Positions 27,996 to 42,052 of a stretch of 64,000 nt of DNA are shown here, in pieces (the stretch's first letter is position 1; the number at the start of each line of letters is the position of its first letter). Source of the stretch: Bdellovibrionota bacterium FG-2 (GTDB lineage Bacteria; Bdellovibrionota; UBA1018); assembly GCA_051382305.1 (NCBI GenBank), contig JBBCAV010000153.1:11387-75386 (forward strand). Direction: 5' to 3'. Both the position numbers and the translations under genes were made by a program. A model generated the notes under the pieces. That model ran no database searches and was not told the origin of the DNA. It was given only the letters and a program-made list of their open reading frames with translations.

Positions 27996-28592
27996 ATGAA
28001 AACAATAATGCTGATACTCGCCCTGAGCTTAACAAGCCTAATGCAATTACACAGTGCCCTTGCAAACGATCGCGAAGATCTCACCCCCGGTTTGCTCGAT
28101 GAGATTCAAGCCGTAAAAGATGGCATGAAAAAAACGCGAGTCTACTTGAGTCGCTCACTACACATCAATCGTACCGACTATATCGGAGAATCCGACAGCA
28201 GTGTCGTCGGCGGCGGACTTGAGAAGACCATTAAAGACAAACGTCGCAATGAAGACATTCCCAGAAACGCAAGAGGCCAAATCATCGAAATCAAAGACGA
28301 GCACGTCTGGATCGCTTTCGACAAAGATTGCGAGAGCAGAGAATGCGCTTTTCATTTTCAATTTCGCGCGCGCGAAAACGATACAAGCCGATTCCCCAAG
28401 GAAAAATTCATCTTCAACAACGCCCCGAAGAATCCGGATTTTAGAACCGTGACTTATCGAGCAACCAGTTTTTGGTTCGGGATTTTGAGAACCTCCGAAA
28501 TCATTCATCTCGAAGTCAAATACGACGAAATTCACGAGTTTATCACCGAGTACAAAACTCACCCTGGCGTGGATGCCCCGGACGAGCGCTAA
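27996..28592 (+). CDS. hypothetical secreted protein
   Basis: signal peptide MKTIMLILALSL...ALA. Confidence 0.65.
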   Translation: MKTIMLILALSLTSLMQLHSALANDREDLTPGLLDEIQAVKDGMKKTRVYLSRSLHINRTDYIGESDSSVVGGGLEKTIKDKRRNEDIPRNARGQIIEIKDEHVWIAFDKDCESRECAFHFQFRARENDTSRFPKEKFIFNNAPKNPDFRTVTYRATSFWFGILRTSEIIHLEVKYDEIHEFITEYKTHPGVDAPDER

Positions 28593-30115
28593 GCGATCTT
28601 CTTAACCGGCACCACCACGGCGCTCGGGGACCCACCTACTTTTCTAAAGTCCGAAGCCGTGATGCGAAACTTGCGCAACATACGCAGAAAATTACTGCGA
28701 TCAATTTTCGATTCTTGAGAGGCCTTACTCACATTCCCATGGTGACGGGTGAGCATCCCCGTCAGAAACTCTTTTTCGAAATTCTCACTCCAGCGTTTCT
28801 TAAGATCTCGATATACGCCCAGCTGAGACGTGGATTTTACCGGGAGATTTAGCGTCTGAGCAACTACTCGCAGCTCAGACGTCTTAGGAAGAGCAAGCAA
28901 TCTCGCGCCAACAGTCTCCCCACCCTGGAATACAAGCGCCACCCGCTCAATCACGTTTTGTAATTCACGAACGTTACCCGGCCACGCGTAGCCCTCTAGC
29001 GCCGCGCGCGCTTCTTCGCTAAACCCAGAGAAGACTTTTCCGCGCGCGGAAAACGCGTCCCTTGAAAACTGCTCGGCAAACGGGACGATATCAGAGCGCC
29101 TTTCACGAAGCGCCGGGAGCTGTAAAACGACGCGACTCAAACGATGAAACAGATCCTCGCGAAACCCGCCTTCCGCCACTCGCTTGTTGAGATCCACGTG
29201 AGTTGCGGCAATCACCCGAACATCTGTCTTTTCGTCTTGCGTGGCGCCCACGCGCCTAAACACTTTTTCTTGAAGTACGCGCAGGAGTTTAGCTTGAAGT
29301 TTTGGATCCATTTCACCAATTTCATCTAAGAAAAGTGTGCCGCCTTTTGCGATTTCAAAAAGGCCGCGCTTTAGCGCCACGGCGCCCGTGAAGGCGCCCT
29401 TCTCATGACCAAAGAGTTCAGACTCCAAAAGCTGCTCATTAAAATTTGCACAGTTCACGGCTACCCAAGGTCCCTGCGCACGCGCCGAATCAGAATGGGT
29501 TCGACGCGCAATCCCCTCCTTACCAGTTCCACTCTCTCCCAAGATCAGGACGGTAGGTTCTTCTACGCCCTGCCTTAAGGCCTCGCGCCGCAAAACACTG
29601 AGCCACTCATTGACCTTGGACATCGACGGATCTTTTGAAGCAATCCAGCTCTTCACCAATCGGGCGCCCCCGCCCTGCGCCTCAGCTCTAACGGCACGCG
29701 CTTCCAGCCTTGCGAGCAGGTCTTCATTTTCGCGTTCTAAAAAGACTTCGGCCTGCGCTCTTTTAACAGCGATGCTCAGCTCATCTAAATCAAAGGGCTT
29801 CTCCAAGTAATCCACGGCACCTAACTTGAGTGCCGAGATCGCCACATCTTTTTCGCCATGCCCAGTGATCATAATGACCCGAAGCCGCGGAAATATCTCT
29901 TTGGCCCAAGCCATCAAAGCCAGCCCATCTTTGCCGGGCATTTTTAGATCCGTGATCAATACCCCAAAACCAGGGGTCAAGGCTTTTTCGGCCTCTTCGG
30001 CCCCATGTGCGGTTACGACCTCAAACCCCTCACGCTCCAAACGCGACTTCAGGAGTTTTCTAATCGTTTCTTCATCATCCACAACCAGCACTTTTTGCGG
30101 CATCTGATTTTTCAC
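28589..30115 (-). CDS. sigma54-dependent response regulator (NtrC/AtoC family)
   Basis: REC domain (DDE, DLKMP), GESGTGKE, ELFGHEKGAFTGA, LFLDEIGE, WPGNVREL, Fis-type HTH. Confidence 0.95.
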   Translation of the reverse strand: MKNQMPQKVLVVDDEETIRKLLKSRLEREGFEVVTAHGAEEAEKALTPGFGVLITDLKMPGKDGLALMAWAKEIFPRLRVIMITGHGEKDVAISALKLGAVDYLEKPFDLDELSIAVKRAQAEVFLERENEDLLARLEARAVRAEAQGGGARLVKSWIASKDPSMSKVNEWLSVLRREALRQGVEEPTVLILGESGTGKEGIARRTHSDSARAQGPWVAVNCANFNEQLLESELFGHEKGAFTGAVALKRGLFEIAKGGTLFLDEIGEMDPKLQAKLLRVLQEKVFRRVGATQDEKTDVRVIAATHVDLNKRVAEGGFREDLFHRLSRVVLQLPALRERRSDIVPFAEQFSRDAFSARGKVFSGFSEEARAALEGYAWPGNVRELQNVIERVALVFQGGETVGARLLALPKTSELRVVAQTLNLPVKSTSQLGVYRDLKKRWSENFEKEFLTGMLTRHHGNVSKASQESKIDRSNFLRMLRKFRITASDFRKVGGSPSAVVVPVKKIA

Positions 30116-31332
30116 CCTAATTCCCTAAAATCTCTTGGTATGCGAACTAAAAACACCGTCCCCTTGCCCATTTCACTTTCAACGCGGATCGAACCATGAA
30201 GCTTTGAAATCATCCCATAACTTAGACTCAAACCTAGCCCCATGCCCTTACCAACTTCTTTTGTCGTAAAAAAGGGATTGAAAGCCTTGGATTTGGTGCG
30301 CTCATTCATGCCGGCGCCGTCATCACTAAACTGGACCTCAACAAACTCACCGTTAATTCGCGTCGTAATTGAAACTTTCCCAGAGCCCCGCCCTGTCGCC
30401 TCAATCGCATCCCGCGCATTAGTGGCAAGATTAATAAACACCTGCTCCAACTGAAGCGCGTTAGCATAGACCGGAGGAAGCTCCTGGCCGTAGCAACGGG
30501 TGACTTGAATTCCCCGCGTGACGAACTGTCGGGCTAGCATTTTAAGGGCTTCTTCAATACGATCATGGACATTCGTGAATTCGTGGCTCTCCGTTGATTT
30601 TCGTGTAAATGCGCGCAGATAATCAATGATTTTAGCCATCTTGTCAGCGTTGCTGATCACTTCTTGCAAACCGTCTTGGGTTTGCTTGAAGCCCTCTTGA
30701 TTCGCAATCAAGGGCAGCGCAATCGCCTGCAGCTCCTGAGCATAACCTCTGATCCCCTGTAACGGTTGATTAAGCTCGTGTGCGATGCCTGCCGCAAGTT
30801 CTCCCAGTGCCGCCATCTTGCCCGATTGCACCAGCGTTTCTTGCATCGAGTGAAGCTCCGCATTTTGCTTTTCGAGCTGAAAGTAGGCGTTTCTTAGTTC
30901 CGCGTGTTTTGTGATGAGCTCCCGCTCCATGCGCTTTTTCTCGCTCACATCTCGAAAAATCGCGAGCGACAGCTTGGAGTGACTCCCCTGCACACGCCGG
31001 ACACTCACATCGACCAACGTTACATACCCATCTTTTCTCACCACGGCGATATCTTCATACGTGCCCGCTATCTTAAACGTTTCTCGCGCCAGCGGCCTTG
31101 CTCGTTCAGGGATTCGGTGTTTTGTGGGATCGGGAATCAAGAGCTGAATGGATTCCCCAATAAGTTCTTCTTTGAGATACCCCGTCAGCTCCTCGCCGGC
31201 CTTATTGAGCGCATCGACTTTGCCCGTGGGAAGCACTGTTAAAATTGCGTCCGAAGCCTGGTCAAATAGGATTTGATAATTATTTTCGGACTCCGCTTCT
31301 GCTATGCGAAGATGTTTTCGATTAGTGGGCAT
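30112..31332 (-). CDS. PAS-domain sensor histidine kinase
   Basis: PAS domain; AHELNQPL H-box; NARDA, DDGAG, FFTTK and GLGL boxes. Confidence 0.93.
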   Translation of the reverse strand: MPTNRKHLRIAEAESENNYQILFDQASDAILTVLPTGKVDALNKAGEELTGYLKEELIGESIQLLIPDPTKHRIPERARPLARETFKIAGTYEDIAVVRKDGYVTLVDVSVRRVQGSHSKLSLAIFRDVSEKKRMERELITKHAELRNAYFQLEKQNAELHSMQETLVQSGKMAALGELAAGIAHELNQPLQGIRGYAQELQAIALPLIANQEGFKQTQDGLQEVISNADKMAKIIDYLRAFTRKSTESHEFTNVHDRIEEALKMLARQFVTRGIQVTRCYGQELPPVYANALQLEQVFINLATNARDAIEATGRGSGKVSITTRINGEFVEVQFSDDGAGMNERTKSKAFNPFFTTKEVGKGMGLGLSLSYGMISKLHGSIRVESEMGKGTVFLVRIPRDFRELG

Positions 31333-32209
31333 GCAAAAACGCGCTGGCCCTTTCTATTTCTTTTCCCAATTCCTCTTCGAGGACGGGAATTTCCTCCGGC
31401 TTAATTTTCAAGGGGGCCAACATATCGGGCGTGATGTCGCCAGCAGAGAAGTCCCCGGATTTTCCGATTTTATTCTTCACACAAAGCGCGTTGGCTAGCC
31501 TCACCATGTGGATCACGGGCTTGGCCGAAGCTAAAACGCTATCCATTTTTGAAACATCAAAATGATGATAGCGAATCGCGAGACGAATAACCTGAGGCAA
31601 CCCCCATTTTGAGGCAATCACCTCGCCCAAGAAAGAGTGTCCTGGAAGTTCAAATTCTTTTTCGACCTCCACGAAGGAGCATTCACGTTTGAGGGTTTCC
31701 TTGATGATTCCCTGTAGGCGTTCAGGATCAATTTTATGGAGCACAAGTTTCCCAATGTCGTGAAGCAGTCCACAGGTAAACGCCTCTTCAGGCTTGGGAT
31801 GTTTAATGCGTTTCGCGAGCATCTCGGCGCCCACGGCGGTTGCAAGTGCGTGCCGCCAAAAATCCATCATGGGAAAATCTTCTAACTCGATATCTGGAAA
31901 AACCGAGAAAACGGAGAGCCCCAACACGAGTTGCGCAAGCGTATTGAAACCCAAGAAGGCCAACGCCCGCTGAACATCGGTCACCCCCCCTGGAATGGCA
32001 TAATACGAGGAATTCACAAGCCGCAGGATCTTGGCCGTCAGGACCTGGTCCTTTTTAAGCACCATGGCAATGTCCGAGCTTGAAGAACTGGGATCGTTAA
32101 TGAGCTCGTTGACGCACATCGCAACAACCGGAAGAGTTGGAATATCTTGAAGTTTTTCAAGCAGAGCCGAGTATTCGGATTGAGTTTTTTTCGTATTGGG
32201 TGTGGCCAT
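31322..32209 (-). CDS. HDOD domain protein
   Basis: IPTLP, DQVLTAKILRLVNSSYY, FWRH, GLLHDIGK, WGLP...IRYHH. Confidence 0.92.
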   Translation of the reverse strand: MATPNTKKTQSEYSALLEKLQDIPTLPVVAMCVNELINDPSSSSSDIAMVLKKDQVLTAKILRLVNSSYYAIPGGVTDVQRALAFLGFNTLAQLVLGLSVFSVFPDIELEDFPMMDFWRHALATAVGAEMLAKRIKHPKPEEAFTCGLLHDIGKLVLHKIDPERLQGIIKETLKRECSFVEVEKEFELPGHSFLGEVIASKWGLPQVIRLAIRYHHFDVSKMDSVLASAKPVIHMVRLANALCVKNKIGKSGDFSAGDITPDMLAPLKIKPEEIPVLEEELGKEIERASAFLHAH

Positions 32210-34991: not shown

Positions 34992-35984
34992 TCAATACAC
35001 CCGCTCCGGCGGCAAATACTCAATCATCGCGCCCTGCCCGACATTCACGGTAAACGTCCACCCCGTATGAACATATCCATCCGCCTCAACCAAGCCCGTG
35101 GGCGGATTGGGAAACCGCGAAATTTTCCGCCATGACGAATCCACGGCTGAATCAAACTCATCGATTCCTGAGCTTTGCATTCTGCGGATTTCAATGAGCC
35201 CCCCCTCTCGATCCAAAATCACATCCACCACGGTCGAATACTCTCCCGGCCGCACTTGCCTTCGGTAGCCAATGGAGCGAATCCGAGACTGCCAAACAGG
35301 ACCAATGGCTTCATACAAACGAGCGTAAAAAGTATAAAAAATAGATTCCTTTGTATTCAAAAGATTCTCAGCCCCCTCCGGCAAATCCTTTTCACGTAGC
35401 GCCTGATCGCCCCCCTCCGAGCCGGGCTGCACTTGTTGAGCTTGCGATTTGCGCCCGTCTTTTCCTACTTTTTTGCGATCGGGAGCAAATTTCATGGGAA
35501 TCCCCAAATTCCCCAGCTTTACTTTGGATCGCGACTTAGCGGCTTCGTTTTGAGCTTTGGGCAGTGCATTTTCCTGGGGCTGCGCCTGCTGAAAAGGAAC
35601 TGCGGGCTTAGGAATCACATTCGTTTGCTTTGCCCGTTGTTCTTTTTCCACCCGAACATTACGTGCGGATTCATAGCGTGCGTCCTTAGGCGCCTCCTTT
35701 TCGCTGGGCGCTTTGGGATCTTTATCGAGGAGAAACCCCGTAGGTTTCTTCTCTTGGTCACGCCATTGCTTGCGGATCGCCTCGAGTTTATTCATATCAA
35801 TCTGCTTAACTTCGACAGGCATCGGACGAGCAGGCGAACTCCACTGAACCTTCACCCACATAAAAAGCAGATGAAAAATCAAAGCCGCGAGCAAAGCAAG
35901 CCACACCCCGGAGCGTCGCCATGGAGAAGGCTGATCCATACTCACTGAAGAAGTAAATGAGGAGGTGATAGCAGACGAAGACAT
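34992..35984 (-). CDS. TonB/TolA-like C-terminal domain protein
   Basis: N-terminal TM containing H, low-complexity linker, SSGIDEFD..V...RFPNPP. Confidence 0.75.
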   Translation of the reverse strand: MSSSAITSSFTSSVSMDQPSPWRRSGVWLALLAALIFHLLFMWVKVQWSSPARPMPVEVKQIDMNKLEAIRKQWRDQEKKPTGFLLDKDPKAPSEKEAPKDARYESARNVRVEKEQRAKQTNVIPKPAVPFQQAQPQENALPKAQNEAAKSRSKVKLGNLGIPMKFAPDRKKVGKDGRKSQAQQVQPGSEGGDQALREKDLPEGAENLLNTKESIFYTFYARLYEAIGPVWQSRIRSIGYRRQVRPGEYSTVVDVILDREGGLIEIRRMQSSGIDEFDSAVDSSWRKISRFPNPPTGLVEADGYVHTGWTFTVNVGQGAMIEYLPPERVY

Positions 35985-36020
35985 AACTCAAACCTAACTT
36001 GAGTTGACCTGCAATCCAAG

Positions 36021-36080
36021 CACCTTGAAGGTGATTCCAAAATGGAACCATTTTGCGCCCCCAGAACGCCTTTGGAACCA
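36021..36080. promoter_or_regulatory. candidate upstream activator sequences
   Basis: palindromes CACCTT-G-AAGGTG (36021-36033) and CAAAATGG-AA-CCATTTTG (36038-36055); TGGAACCA repeated at 36043 and 36073. Confidence 0.45.
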
Positions 36081-36232
36081 CCTACTAGTTGCGCACAGCT
36101 CAATAGAAACACTCAGACACAGATCTCAAAAGAAGAGGTCAAAAAAAACATGGCCTCAAAAGGCCTTAATTATAGGGCAACATCAAAAATCACAAAAACA
36201 ACTGCCCACAAAACCTCCCAAACCCGGCCAAC

Positions 36233-36248
36233 TGGCACAAGCATTGCT
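36233..36248 (+). promoter_or_regulatory. sigma54 -24/-12 promoter
   Basis: TGGCACAAGCATTGCT, matching the TGGCAC-N5-TTGCW consensus. Confidence 0.8.
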
Positions 36249-36258
36249 AACTGCTAAA

Positions 36259-36374
36259 TCCGTTCGGCTGCTTTCACCACTGAGAAAAATCTTTTCCTTT
36301 CCAAAAAAAGGAACATTCCCCTCCATAGAGATTTAGCTCAACCAAGGGTGGTGAAAGCAGCCATTCGTTTTTTT
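36259..36374 (+). ncRNA. candidate sigma54-transcribed structured small RNA
   Basis: 15-bp perfect closing stem (36266-80/36348-62), nested helices, T7 run at 36368-74; no ORF downstream of the promoter. Confidence 0.6.
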
Positions 36375-36392
36375 GCGGATTAAATCTCAACT

Positions 36393-37205
36393 TTAAGACA
36401 TTGCGCGGATCAAGAACCCGACGAGCATAACGGCTAAGAAAACCAACCCCAGCTTCGCGTCTGAGCGCGCCGCAAAAACCCCCAGCGACTCCAGAAAACT
36501 GTTTTCCAAAAATGAGCGATTCAATGCCCGCGGCGTGTCCACGACTTGCTGCAACTGTTGAAATTCGCTTTCTTTTTGCGCAAAAGACGGAAAAAACTTT
36601 TCAATCGCAAAGTAAAGCTCGCGGGCAACACCCAGCGATTTTCTACAAGAAGCGCACGCCATTAGGTGATTTTGCACAAAAAGCTGCTCAGATTTTTTCT
36701 CAAATTCATCATCCAAAAAACGCTGCGTCCATGGCCTCAGCGTATCGTATTCAGGGCATTTGGCTCCGGTTTGCGAATTCCCAACAGGATAACGCATTGC
36801 AGCCCCAAGCCCCGCCTCTCCCAACTGTACCCGCGCACGCCAAGCTTGCTCCTGCACCCATTCCACATCCTCATCAAAAACTCGAGCCAATCTCTGATAG
36901 GACCAGTTTCCACGATGCAGCGCAACAAGCAGAAAGCGATGTTCTGGAAACAAACGATAAAATGGATGCCCCAGCAAATGCAAATTCTCTACTAAATTCG
37001 CAGGCATCCCCTCGCGAGTCGCACGTCCAATGAGGGCCGACGCAGCGCGCTCAAGCGTCCTCTCTGAGGTAAGCTCAAGCGACGAAACTGCACTGAGGGT
37101 CTCCGTTACAATCCGAACCGAACGCACAGGATCCGCCCAAAGTGCGACTCCTAGCTCAGTAAAAGTGCGAATTTCCTCACGATCAAGACGCGACATGGAT
37201 TTCAC
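36393..37205 (-). CDS. sigma region-4-like HTH + ZAS zinc-finger + C-terminal TM protein
   Basis: LFPEHRFLLVAL...SYQRLARVF...WRARVQL; C...HLMACASC; terminal hydrophobic helix. Confidence 0.65.
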   Translation of the reverse strand: MKSMSRLDREEIRTFTELGVALWADPVRSVRIVTETLSAVSSLELTSERTLERAASALIGRATREGMPANLVENLHLLGHPFYRLFPEHRFLLVALHRGNWSYQRLARVFDEDVEWVQEQAWRARVQLGEAGLGAAMRYPVGNSQTGAKCPEYDTLRPWTQRFLDDEFEKKSEQLFVQNHLMACASCRKSLGVARELYFAIEKFFPSFAQKESEFQQLQQVVDTPRALNRSFLENSFLESLGVFAARSDAKLGLVFLAVMLVGFLIRAMS

Positions 37206-37298
37206 AATACCTCTGTACCCCTTGACAGCCCTCACATTTTTGAGAGAGGCTGCCCTTGCATTGAAGTTTAACACAATGTTTTGTGGAGGGGAAATTCA

Positions 37299-38540
37299 GT
37301 GCAACTAAAAAGTTTCGCCTTTTATGCGTGCTTGGTTTTGTTGGCTTTTGAGAGTGCGCCTTCGCTTGCTCGCACCCCTAGCACCCCCATTGGGCCAATT
37401 CGCGAATCTGTGCTGAGCCTGGATGGTTTCACTTTGGCACTCAAGCATTTTTCTAACCCAGGAAAACAGCCTCTTCTTCTCATTCACGGCCTTGCGCAAA
37501 ATGATCGCATCTGGGACTCACCCATTGGGCGCTATCGATTTGCACAAATCCTTCATGCTCAAGGCTATGATGTGTGGGTTGGAAACTTAAGAGGCGCGGG
37601 GACCGAAGGTTTTCGAAGCGACACGCCTCCTGGACCACACCACTGGACAGTTGATGACTATGCCATCAATGACATGCCAGCGCTGGTAGACAAGGTGTAC
37701 AGAGAAACCGGTCAAAAACCTTGGCTCATCGGCCACAGCTTGGCGGCATGGGTTTTCACGGGTTACCTTGGCGGAATTGACTACACGCTTGATGGACAAG
37801 TCAGCGCTGACGATGAAAAAAGTGCGGTCCGGCAAGCCACGGTGGCAGGAGTCATCACGATTGCAGGAGTCTACAATCTGGCTTGGGAGCATTCGGTAGA
37901 GAATCTCCTCAAAGATCCGATTCGCTCCGAAGAAGACTTCTATCACTCAAACTATGAACTGGAACTTCTGGCCAAGGATCGGCCGCTTTTCTGGATCATT
38001 CCTAGGCTCCCGGGGCTTCCACTCGGGTGGATTGGCACCGTTTTGGGGCTACAATTTGATCGGATTCCGCTGATCGGAAAAAAACTTACGCAAGCTTACT
38101 CGGGGCTGCAGTCGCAGATCATTAAAACGCCTGTGTTCAGCATGTTCTACTCGCCGTCGAACACGAATGCCGAGATGGTCAAGAAACATGTCGCCGATGG
38201 ATTTGAAGACCTGGGCCCCCATCTGGTTGAGCAACTTGCGAACGCCGTGAATAATCATGAAACCACGAGCTATTATCACTTAGAGCGCCCCCTGCAAGCT
38301 TATCGCTACAGCGATGTTTTGAAGTCGCTCAAACTCCCTATCCTCTTTATGGGCGGGGAAAAAGACCGGCTCGCCTCTACACATCAGATCTACAATGACG
38401 GGTATCTGAAGACCGCGAGCCTTGATAAGATGTTCATCACCGTCCCCAATGCCGGACACCTCGATATTCTAACCGGGGAAAACTCCTCTGAAATCACGAT
38501 CCCGGCTGTCGTGCGGTTTATCGAAGACCACCAGCGGTAA
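37299..38540 (+). CDS. secreted alpha/beta hydrolase (lipase-like)
   Basis: signal peptide; HGLAQN, NLRG, GHSLA nucleophile elbow, D in GEKD, GHLD; GGAGGGG RBS. Confidence 0.88.
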   Translation: MQLKSFAFYACLVLLAFESAPSLARTPSTPIGPIRESVLSLDGFTLALKHFSNPGKQPLLLIHGLAQNDRIWDSPIGRYRFAQILHAQGYDVWVGNLRGAGTEGFRSDTPPGPHHWTVDDYAINDMPALVDKVYRETGQKPWLIGHSLAAWVFTGYLGGIDYTLDGQVSADDEKSAVRQATVAGVITIAGVYNLAWEHSVENLLKDPIRSEEDFYHSNYELELLAKDRPLFWIIPRLPGLPLGWIGTVLGLQFDRIPLIGKKLTQAYSGLQSQIIKTPVFSMFYSPSNTNAEMVKKHVADGFEDLGPHLVEQLANAVNNHETTSYYHLERPLQAYRYSDVLKSLKLPILFMGGEKDRLASTHQIYNDGYLKTASLDKMFITVPNAGHLDILTGENSSEITIPAVVRFIEDHQR

Positions 38541-40564: not shown

Positions 40565-42052
40565 GTTATGTGAAAAATCAAGCAAGGACTTTGCCCTAAA
40601 TTGACTTTTTGTATTCTGTGATCTCAAAATAGTTTCTGTTTTTACGGTTCTTTTCCCTTTTCTATCTGCTTCGACAATTTTAGCTGAACGACCTGTTATT
40701 CGTAGTCAAGGCCTTAGCCTCGCCACCAGTTGCAAAATTCGCTGTCTAAAAATCATGTGCCGCGCCACATACTGGGACTACGTGATGAGAAAATCCTCTC
40801 ACGAGGGGGATAACGTAGTCACGGCAAAGCTCTCAGTTCATACCTTTTTGTCGATGCAAATCATTGTATTCGATCAAAACTTCTATTCGCTGTTGTGTGT
40901 TTCGACTCACATGCAGACCCCCAATTGATATGTCATTTTTTGCCTGAAACAGGCCCTAATTCGACCACTAAGTTTTCTGGCAATGGCGACGATTGCCCTT
41001 TTCTTGCCGCGCGTGCCAGCGATCCGTTCGAACATGGCTTTAAGCGCCGGATCTTTATCTATCGCAAACCATGCGGCCTCCACCAATATTTGCCGGACTC
41101 GATACGACCCCTGATGCGTGATGTGGCCTCTTCTAACGGCGTAAGTCCAGTGAATTTGAACAGCTCCCTCTCATTATTGAATCGCTTTGATAAGTCACCC
41201 ATCTCGTTTGACAGTACTCGCGCTCCAATTGGCCCAATGCCCGGCACACTACGGTAAACCTTTTCCAGATGAAGGTCCTTTTTGCTTTGCTCCTGAAGCT
41301 TCTTTCGAAGATCCACCAACTGTAGGGTCAAAAAACGCCATTGTTCGATCAAGAGATTCAAGGAATCCGAAAGGTCCTCGGGTAATTGCGTTTCTTAGAT
41401 CTCTTTTAAACGGCGATTGCAAAGCGTCCGTTTAGGAGTATTGCAAGTGAGCAAGCCAAAATAATAGAGTTTGCTCTTAATTTGTCGAGCAACACGTCCC
41501 CGCGATTCTACAATCTGCTCCCGCGTGCGTGTTAACTGCCGTCTAAGTTCTTGCGCCCGATCTGGCACAAAAATACAACGAAGTCTTCCCGCCTCTAGCT
41601 GCTCCGCGAGTTTTTTTGAATCCCGGCGATCTGTTTTGACTTTGTCGTTAGCAGCCACTTCAACGGACGCCGCATTGATTACGATGTTGTGAATGCCTCC
41701 CTCGACCAATGTACGATGTAGTACAAACCCACTAAAACCAGCTTCGTACACGCTAAAAATACTCTTCGCATCCCCAAAGCTCCGCTTCAAGAAGGTGACG
41801 ACCCCAGTCGGGTTTGCCTCCATCGTTACCCGATAGGCGATCTCTCCGTCGCATCGAACGGTAATCGAATAAGTTTTTAAATGAACAGCAATTCCCACGT
41901 AGACTTTTTTCCCTTTATAGCTGATTTTCTTAGCGCTCATATGAGCCCCCCTTGGTTGGTTTTGTTGTTTGTTTAGCAACCTGTAACAAATGCCAATCAA
42001 GGGGATCTTTCAATAACTTCTCTCACCACTCCTTGTGATTTTTCAGCATAGC
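40565..42052 (-). mobile_element. IS110-family (IS1111-like) insertion sequence, inactivated
   Basis: transposase remnant flanked by imperfect inverted repeats with core TGAAAAATCA (40571-80) and TGATTTTTCA (42036-45); ~320-nt non-coding region 3' of the transposase. Confidence 0.75.
40907..41940 (-). pseudogene. IS110-family DEDD transposase pseudogene
   Basis: YVGIAVH (first Asp lost), YEAG, KTDRRD, SVPGIG, GLTP; in-frame TAA at 41395, SSG segment missing, later frameshifts. Confidence 0.88.

Follow-up and report, generated by a model that had tools for sequence, protein, structure and literature searches.

A conserved, sigma-54-type candidate small RNA gene in the Bdellovibrionota with an invariant anti-Shine-Dalgarno-like segment

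An intergenic region of Bdellovibrionota bacterium FG-2, situated in the 64,000-nucleotide (nt) stretch of DNA analyzed here (the window), very probably holds a real and conserved small RNA gene with a sigma-54-type promoter and an upstream enhancer, as judged by comparison of related genome sequences. The predicted transcript is closed by a long stem that presents a single-stranded, C-rich segment (the seed), and the RNA most likely acts in trans through this anti-Shine-Dalgarno-like seed. A fuller reading, in which an NtrC-type response regulator encoded on another contig activates a sigma-54-driven, trans-acting RNA whose seed blocks ribosome binding on a neighboring hydrolase gene, is on balance probable. 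It is the conservation in relatives, not the window alone, that places the feature beyond chance.

RESULTS

A sigma-54-type promoter precedes a structured, apparently noncoding region

The window belongs to contig C153 of a genome (G000) of 4.34 Mb in 433 contigs that is 85% complete; relatives' genomes are referred to by G-numbers, and f1, f5, f13, and f30 are families within the same Bdellovibrionota class. The initial annotation, made from the window sequence alone, described a consensus sigma-54 promoter pointing into an undescribed structured RNA, and the parts that it listed are all present: an exact promoter match (TGGCACAAGCATTGCT), the closing stem, nested helices, a hairpin, the C-rich segment, a run of seven T residues, and a convergent gene, which codes for a 293-amino acid (aa) protein (Table 1). 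This is the sole match to TGGCAC-N5-TTGCW in the 64-kb window, where 0.10 are expected, and because at least one match also arises in 10 of 100 shuffles, the match taken by itself can only suggest a promoter. G000 encodes rpoN and has 28 exact promoter matches, many of them directly before start codons. From the promoter position, transcription is predicted to start at about 36258 to 36260, and the RNA from 36259 to 36376 folds at −43.0 kcal/mol (z −5.45), with equal folding in none of 200 shuffles.

The annotation had recognized no known RNA family, and a search of positions 35900 to 36500 on both strands with Rfam 15 cmscan and permissive filters agrees, with no family at its gathering threshold; the three best matches, all to eukaryotic families, have E values of 2.6 to 9 and score 14 to 18 bits against thresholds of 50 to 60. 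It had also seen no plausible open reading frame (ORF), which stands insofar as no gene is accepted here, but mechanical plus-strand ORFs do exist at 36004 to 36336 (110 aa, TTG start) and 36042 to 36257 (71 aa). Both span the enhancer and promoter region and up to half of the RNA, and they were rejected as genes; flanking proteins of a same-genus relative are 77 to 86% identical, yet even with this relative the spacer cannot be aligned by eye. No AUG was seen in the predicted RNA sequence, loop lengths differ among homologues by non-multiples of three nt, and the ORF list for the window has no same-strand gene downstream of the RNA. The three public sequencing runs listed as holding positions 36200 to 36400 are DNA or of unknown type, and none is an RNA run.

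Promoter, fold, and seed are conserved

Conservation was followed in 15 close homologues (14 f1 genomes and one metagenomic locus, L140) and 12 divergent ones (f5, f13, and f30). In each of the 15 close homologues, TGGCA[CT]-N5-TTGCT precedes the closing stem by 16 to 19 nt, and the promoter is also kept in divergent homologues whose stem sequences differ. The count for the f1 genomes initially stood at 13 of 14. The apparent exception, G052, is an assembly artifact, with a fold-back at a contig end (L075, G052:C182) that joins the inverted promoter-to-enhancer spacer to the RNA; the true arrangement is on a second contig of this genome (L336, G052:C377), which runs from the end of the flanking TonB C-terminal domain (TonB-C) gene through the upstream sites and promoter into the first ∼40 nt of the RNA.

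The predicted stems are likewise borne out in relatives. In a 14-sequence alignment, which was fitted to a covariance model and so favors the structure, 95.2% of cells are paired, compared to 35 to 49% for slid controls, and 17 of 27 base pairs have compensatory changes on both sides; none of 500 shuffles reaches any of the five measures used. Among the 16 pairs of the closing stem (P1), seven are invariant and seven have changed on both sides, and the f5 and f13 homologues retain a long closing stem of different sequence. The inner hairpin is found in all 15 individual folds with variable loops, including a ∼30-nt insertion in G012. G·U pairs outnumber A·C mismatches 20 to 7, which favors the plus strand, as does the direction of the promoter, and a T-run (at least four T within 16 nt after P1) is present in 8 of 15 close homologues and in all four of the divergent homologues folded.

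The core of the seed, UUCCCCUCCA, is identical in all 27 homologues, and its mean unpaired probability is 0.54 to 0.99 in 15 of 15 folds, versus 0.27 to 0.43 for the rest of each RNA. The conserved block reaches into the hairpin arm (GGAAC or GGAAU plus AUUCCCCUCCA). The core contains CCUCC, which is the anti-Shine-Dalgarno core of 16S rRNA. At the level of sequence, the comparison establishes the gene, its promoter and upstream sites, the fold, and an invariant, accessible seed.

The RNA occurs in at least four families

The element is single copy in G000, where the next-best match is 22 nt, and this excludes a miniature inverted-repeat transposable element, a possibility raised in the initial annotation; the f1 genomes that have the RNA likewise have one locus each. 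A BLAST search of 40 relatives gave five clear homologues. Covariance models built on the RNA part only, with the promoter excluded, were positive in 14 of 75 f1 genomes and in none of 42 genomes from the other 11 families of the order, and they gave one weak match in a phylum sample of 151 genomes, which belongs to a true but divergent homologue that has the upstream sites, promoter, and seed as well as a T8 terminator. A composite promoter-plus-seed pattern matched 17 of 127 class genomes (reversed control, 0), and 16 of these were judged true (12 in f1, two in f13, and two in f5); the match in G099 lies inside a coding region and was judged to be chance. The f5 and f13 matches have a closing stem of different sequence together with an unpaired seed. 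With a looser pattern of hairpin arm plus seed there were 41 matches, spread over 36 genomes (18 for the control), and inspection located the RNA in nine of nine f13 genomes and one f30 genome; eleven further matches are not the RNA. Of the f13 copies, one is truncated by a contig start and two have a TTGCG promoter variant, and no promoter match was found at the f30 locus.

The RNA is thereby present in 26 of 127 class genomes (f1, 14; f5, 2; f13, 9; f30, 1) and constitutes a new family for Rfam-type annotation that spans at least four Bdellovibrionota families. The covariance model missed real homologues in f5, f13, and f30, for which the promoter-plus-seed pattern was needed, and distribution claims drawn from covariance models alone call for caution. 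A metagenome scan with a degenerate pattern, which was too loose, yielded one true homologue (L140) among 80 inspected of at least 118 matching stretches. In a scan of public genome contigs, 10 of 25 stretches scored as homologues, with the same scores as known family genomes; the others (Serratia, Lachnospiraceae, and others) are chance matches.

Tandem enhancer-like sites lie upstream of the promoter

The promoter was originally called an orphan, which does not hold in the sense of lacking an enhancer: tandem TGGAAC sites lie upstream of it, and their conservation is part of the comparative support for the accompanying proposal of an undescribed regulatory RNA under an enhancer-binding protein. 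Tandem TGGAAC[CT] cores are spaced 30 to 32 bp apart (about three helical turns) in 9 of 12 promoter-bearing relatives scanned, with the first core sitting within the palindrome GTTCCAAATTGGAAC. The three that depart from this are G018, with a spacing of 18 bp, G057, in which one site is degenerate, and G058, with three sites 24 to 32 bp apart. The metagenomic locus L140 has one site. The pair is found in G007 and also on the second G052 contig, and related sites occur in f5 and f13. Across relatives the sites range from −72 to −233 relative to the predicted start, and they are conserved though the surrounding spacers cannot be aligned by eye. As predicted sites they fit the classical layout for an enhancer-binding protein. 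In G000, two TGGAAC[CT] cores lie 15 to 35 nt apart seven times, and the palindrome-plus-half-site layout is present only at the RNA. A family-wide scan for the layout gave 25 matches (12 for controls), of which 10 are the RNA's own enhancer; a match in G011 falls in coding sequence.

Other elements of G000 are also of note. A family of sigma-54 promoters has tandem palindromes GTCCCA-N4-TGGGAC and GTTCCA-N4-TGGAAC at about −100 and −68, with examples on C121 (near 218 and 2279), C352 (near 2456), C385 (near 9603), C328 (near 13474), and C177 (near 9437). At least three of these promoters (C121, C352, and C385) precede short excisionase-like helix-turn-helix genes, and the next ORF on C352 (419 aa) is guessed to be an integrase; the group has the look of sigma-54-controlled integrative elements. 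Their half-site resembles that of the small RNA enhancer, with a different spacing. The half-site scan also met a short-repeat array of TTGGAACAAAGTCAGAACAAAG-like units at G000:C313, about 1683 to 1888.

A candidate activator largely co-occurs with the RNA

When the Sigma54_activat loci of six genomes, three with the RNA and three without it, were compared with the 22 enhancer-binding-protein ORFs of G000, only one ORF, on contig C1 (Table 1), had reciprocal orthologues in RNA-bearing genomes (two of three) and none in the RNA-lacking ones (zero of three). The C1 regulator gene is preceded by a CHASE2 histidine kinase gene, and a ParA-like ATPase gene comes after it. Its orthologue class (69 to 94% identity and at least 702 bits, with a paralogue at no more than 564 bits) is represented family-wide in 11 of the 13 other genomes that have the RNA and in 3 of the 61 that lack it; in those three, neither the covariance model nor the composite pattern detects the RNA, and the 293-aa gene was not found. 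Class-wide, the regulator is present in 27 of 127 genomes, including nine of nine in f13, and joint occurrence stands at 21 genomes with both RNA and regulator, five with the RNA only, six with the regulator only, and 95 with neither. These patterns give the C1 regulator, as a candidate, about an even chance of being the activator of the RNA.

RNA-bearing genomes are scattered on a tree of a single regulator protein, which has 43 rows (some 20 other orthologues are not included, and G052, G088, and G011 had none usable), with 10 changes on the best tree and at least three forced by supported branches; the tree is poorly resolved, with 19 of 40 forks open.

Other genes near these regulators are of note. 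A type III glutamine synthetase gene at G000:C1:20114-22339 (L332 8115-10340, minus strand) lies ∼1 kb beyond the ParA-like gene and could hint at a nitrogen-related signal. Within the window, ∼6 kb from the RNA, positions 28589 to 32209 (minus strand) code for an HDOD protein, a PAS histidine kinase, and an NtrC-type sigma-54 activator and are read as an operon. This window regulator (28589 to 30115) does not track the RNA, with orthologues in 49 of 74 family genomes and none in four RNA-bearing ones. Another regulator, which keeps its synteny in G010, G020, and G088 and has its orthologue at G000:C381, occurs throughout the family and thus is not RNA specific.

A neighboring hydrolase gene is the leading candidate target

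The seed (36313 to 36327) was scored against positions −30 to +10 of candidate starts for the 3,792 G000 ORFs of at least 150 aa, with a duplex background of mean −8.8, standard deviation 3.4, and minimum −23.2 kcal/mol. The second-ranked leader (−21.4 kcal/mol, with 0.05% of the background as low) belongs to a secreted-looking alpha/beta hydrolase encoded just beyond the 293-aa gene (Table 1). The same-genus relative G001 has the same box (−21.4), and comparable boxes recur amid otherwise different leaders in three further RNA-bearing genomes: G063 (f1; −21.2 kcal/mol, 0.05% of the background as low), G018 (f1; −20.9 kcal/mol, 0.08%), and G028 (f5; −24.0 kcal/mol, below the background minimum). 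The genomes beyond G000 in which the match recurs thus number four and take in another genus of f1 as well as another family. The hydrolase gene adjoins the RNA or the 293-aa gene in G000, G001, G007, G058, G063, G018, G028, and G037, and adjoins the 293-aa gene in 1 of 17 RNA-lacking genomes inspected. The protein has a hydrophobic N terminus, its closest relatives of solved structure are gastric and lysosomal acid lipases (E of 2e-10 over ∼110 residues), and it has just 55 homologues at E of 1e-20 or lower in a large protein collection. On this sequence evidence the hydrolase is the leading candidate target, with a chance that we place a little short of even.

Among other highly ranked leaders, that at rank 5 belongs to another alpha/beta hydrolase, and those at ranks 1 and 3 belong to proteins without a Pfam match. 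The sole other 11-mer complement to the seed in G000 is in the ribosome-binding site of an excisionase-like gene, with about two expected by chance, and was rejected as a target. No seed match was found in the leaders of the candidate kinase and regulator operon. Scanning for 10-mer complements in five genomes with the RNA yielded 34 matches (13 for controls), eleven of them before ORFs, among which no shared orthologue was seen; one precedes a gene read by eye as FliW and is not conserved in G000.

Genomic setting

In most relatives the TonB-C gene, enhancer, promoter, and RNA follow one another in one direction and then meet the convergent 293-aa gene. The TonB-C gene is divergent only here and in the relative of the same genus; in at least four other relatives (G007, G010, G063, and G088) it lies just upstream of the RNA and points in its direction. 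Of 19 inspected genomes that lack the RNA, 17 have the TonB-C and 293-aa gene ends facing each other across a short spacer, and neither promoter nor seed is present in those 17 spacers (with the TonB-C end recognized by eye); since the two ends abut in the absence of the RNA, the ∼350-bp module represents an insertion or deletion at one intergenic site. In G018, the RNA and the 293-aa gene are on different contigs.

The 293-aa gene is single copy and occurs across the family (62 of 74 genomes), so that it does not set the RNA-bearing genomes apart. It was first labeled a sigma/zinc-binding anti-sigma (ZAS) gene; no Pfam or NCBIfam match supports this, but the translation does contain an H-x3-C-x2-C motif of the zinc anti-sigma type, together with a hydrophobic C terminus, and its product is possibly a membrane-anchored, anti-sigma-like regulator. 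A stretch of the protein resembles sigma-70 region 4 by eye. Farther away in the window, positions 41395 to 42000 (minus strand) code for an IS110-family transposase fragment of 201 aa that corresponds to profile positions 1 to 158 of 343.

TABLE 1 Predicted features of the small RNA locus and of its candidate partners (window positions unless a contig is given)
Feature	Position	Strand	Description
Upstream site 1, imperfect palindrome GATTCCAAAATGGAACC	36033-36049	+	Consensus of relatives, GTTCCAAATTGGAACC
Upstream site 2, CTTTGGAACC	36070-36079	+	TGGAACC core 30 bp after site 1 core
Sigma-54 (−24/−12) promoter, TGGCACAAGCATTGCT	36233-36248	+	Exact TGGCAC-N5-TTGCT
Predicted small RNA, ∼118 nt	36258-36376	+	Both ends inferred
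Closing stem, 5' arm GGCTGCTTTCACCAC	36266-36280	+	Pairs with GTGGTGAAAGCAGCC
Closing stem, 3' arm GTGGTGAAAGCAGCC	36348-36362	+	Pairs with GGCTGCTTTCACCAC
Stem P1, 16 pairs	36266-36281 (5' arm), 36347-36362 (3' arm)	+	From fold and alignment
Inner hairpin, TTCCTTT/AAAGGAA	36294-36300/36307-36313	+	Directly 5' of seed
C-rich segment CATTCCCCTCCAT	36314-36326	+	In RNA, unpaired seed CAUUCCCCUCCAU
Invariant seed core UUCCCCUCCA	36316-36325	+	Holds anti-Shine-Dalgarno core CCUCC
T7 run after closing stem	36368-36374	+	Probable intrinsic terminator
TonB C-terminal domain gene, divergent neighbor	34992-35984	−	Pfam TonB_2, E 2.4e-7
Convergent 293-aa gene	36393-37274	−	Stop codon 17 nt past predicted RNA end
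Candidate target site TGGAGGGGAA	37284-37293	+	5 nt before GTG start at 37299
Secreted-looking alpha/beta hydrolase, candidate target gene	37299-38540	+	Pfam Abhydrolase_1/6, Hydrolase_4
Candidate NtrC-type response regulator	G000:C1:17530-19035		Receiver, AAA+, and HTH_8 domains

DISCUSSION

In the reading that we prefer, a signal-activated enhancer-binding protein would bind the two TGGAAC sites ∼185 to 215 bp upstream and, once bound, would switch on RNA polymerase carrying sigma-54 at the −24/−12 promoter. The long closing stem would clamp the transcript, and probably also terminates and stabilizes it, and the clamp would display the invariant single-stranded segment AUUCCCCUCCAU. This segment would mimic the anti-Shine-Dalgarno end of 16S rRNA, pair with UGGAGGGGAA-like G-rich ribosome-binding sites, and block the initiation of translation. 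That the RNA is transcribed, which protein activates it, how it pairs, in which direction it regulates, and which gene it targets are all inferred.

Several observations weigh against one or another part of this reading. With respect to the transcript, the minus strand folds at −46.4 kcal/mol (z −5.65), and because both strands fold equally well, folding alone cannot assign the strand; 7 of the 15 close homologues have no T-run. With respect to the activator, five genomes have the RNA and no regulator at threshold (G020, G063, G028, G037, and G253), and six have the regulator without the RNA (G060, G011, G065, G110, G111, and G113). The co-occurrence counts also ignore kinship, related genomes not being independent, and an independent-pairs test has only three supported pairs (median p of 0.5) and is powerless. 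A search of G000 turned up no further enhancer with this layout, so that a regulon cannot serve to confirm the activator. Nor was Hfq (PF17209) detected in G000 at its 85% completeness; if the RNA is a pairing RNA, it may act without Hfq, or the hfq gene may be unassembled. With respect to the target, the hydrolase duplex is weaker in two RNA-bearing f1 genomes, G058 (−15.0 kcal/mol, 4.7% of the background as low) and G007 (−11.2 kcal/mol, 25%), and the f1 genome G019, which lacks the RNA, keeps the G-rich box (−15.5 kcal/mol, 3.4%). Orthologous ribosome-binding sites can also be alike by descent. No hydrolase was seen within 1.5 kb of the RNA at the five f13 loci and one f30 locus checked, and genome-wide the 9-mer GGAGGGGAA occurs 35 times, with 35 to 38 occurrences for three control 9-mers.

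The close association with the 293-aa gene raises the question of whether the RNA is instead a cis antisense or terminator partner of that gene, in which case the 3' end of the RNA would overlap the 3' untranslated region of the gene, the shared hairpin would set the termination or stability of the gene's mRNA, and the C-rich loop would be incidental. Among 10 loci whose flanks are long enough, 9 have the convergent gene immediately after the RNA; its stop codon is only 17 nt from the RNA end in the window, and the hairpin folds on both strands. However, the gene is family-wide, and most RNA-lacking genomes inspected (17 of 19) have the TonB-C junction without the element; the RNA is on another contig from it in G018, another gene intervenes in G057, and in f5, f13, and f30 a search within 1.5 kb of the RNA turned up no 293-aa gene. 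Cis action also sits poorly with the absence of a same-strand gene downstream of the RNA, and it leaves unexplained both the invariant 10-nt unpaired segment and a dedicated sigma-54 promoter with enhancer sites. We regard it as quite unlikely.

Titration of a protein or of another RNA, with the transcript serving as sponge or decoy for a regulator that recognizes the C-rich loop or the GGAA-containing hairpin, would account for the extension of the conserved block into the hairpin arm (GGAAC or GGAAU plus AUUCCCCUCCA) and for the lack of a target conserved across all lineages, and the sigma-54-dependent RNAs CrcZ and GlmY do act by titration. Known titrating RNAs carry several copies of their motif, though, whereas there is one copy per RNA here; this motif holds the anti-Shine-Dalgarno core, and the second-best predicted ribosome-binding-site match in the genome is that of the neighboring gene and recurs in another family, so titration appears unlikely. 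Very unlikely is a mere structured intergenic element, either a bidirectional terminator or a mobile-element remnant, next to a fortuitous promoter match. In its favor, most relatives have the element flanked by two genes that both end toward it, and shuffled 64-kb sequences produce a promoter match at an appreciable rate (10 of 100), but the promoter is held at a fixed spacing in 15 of 15 close homologues, with tandem upstream sites, and is kept in divergent homologues with different stem sequences. The element is also single copy with no dispersed copies, and terminators do not keep an invariant 10-nt loop across four families.

A trans-acting, seed-pairing RNA remains our preferred explanation, and a broader version of it can be sketched, namely, a class-wide, self-contained module in which an extracellular-sensing CHASE2 kinase and a duplicated NtrC-type regulator drive, as their one dedicated output, an Hfq-independent, anti-Shine-Dalgarno-mimic RNA that gates the translation of secreted lipase-like hydrolases. 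This version is speculative, and we think it doubtful. Were it true, joint gains or losses of the RNA and the regulator would have taken place repeatedly in a single family, and if these bacteria are also predators like their cultured relatives, the module would act as a switch that controls prey-degrading enzymes post-transcriptionally.

Few small RNAs are driven by sigma-54, and most of the work on them has been done in Proteobacteria and Campylobacter. The Qrr RNAs of Vibrio are ∼100 nt long and sigma-54 dependent, with a long single-stranded pairing segment, and are controlled by LuxO, a regulator that mainly targets RNA genes. The RNA described here is similar to Qrr in its ∼100-nt length, −24/−12 promoter, upstream activator sites, and long invariant segment, here predicted to be single stranded and to pair, and in having, as a candidate, a dedicated NtrC-type response regulator; LuxO is described as an NtrC homologue (PMC11407668). 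It differs from Qrr in that it has no sequence or Rfam match and is present in one copy per genome rather than as four or five genes, has a single clamp with an internal loop where Qrr has several stem-loops, and presents a C-rich, anti-Shine-Dalgarno-like seed in a genome in which Hfq was not found. Unlike in Qrr, the candidate regulator gene is on another contig and is not adjacent.

Pxr of Myxococcus, from a predatory and formerly "delta-proteobacterial" lineage, also has a sigma-54-type promoter and is thought to be under NtrC-like two-component control. The two are alike as small RNAs driven by sigma-54-type promoters and differ in fold and seed, with no Rfam match at threshold here, and in lineage (Bdellovibrionota versus Myxococcota). 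The RNAs 6C of Mycobacterium and RsaE/RoxS and IsrR of staphylococci and bacilli have several C-rich loops and are not sigma-54 dependent. They share with the present RNA an accessible C-rich motif for G-rich ribosome-binding sites, which is predicted here, but are from unrelated phyla, and there is a single motif here, of fixed sequence. 6C is described as acting independently of RNA chaperones (PMC6486639), and a similar independence would fit the failure to find Hfq in G000.

The order of components proposed here, from sensor kinase to NtrC-type regulator to sigma-54 to one small RNA, is that of GlmY/GlmZ with GlrKR and of CrcZ/CrcY with CbrAB. GlmY/GlmZ and CrcZ/CrcY act mainly by titrating proteins. 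They have no sequence or structural similarity to the present RNA; CrcZ/CrcY are described together with RpoN (PMC6292655), and the CbrAB system is described as well (PMC8871633). CJnc230 of Campylobacter jejuni is described as an RpoN-dependent small RNA that regulates translation of specific mRNAs (PMC11187230), and this mode of action is the one predicted here. CJnc230 belongs to the flagellar hierarchy, whereas there is no flagellar context here and no sequence relation was detected.

No sigma-54-dependent small RNA was described for Bdellovibrio in the literature searched, which consisted of listings and the beginnings of abstracts. In kind, then, the RNA is familiar from Qrr, Pxr, GlmY, CrcZ, and CJnc230, and in family, lineage, and proposed circuit it is new to the libraries searched and to that literature. 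For an uncultivated lineage the predicted circuit is unusually complete, with a promoter, enhancer sites, a candidate kinase and regulator, an invariant seed, and a candidate target, and an anonymous intergenic hairpin thereby becomes a set of directly testable statements.

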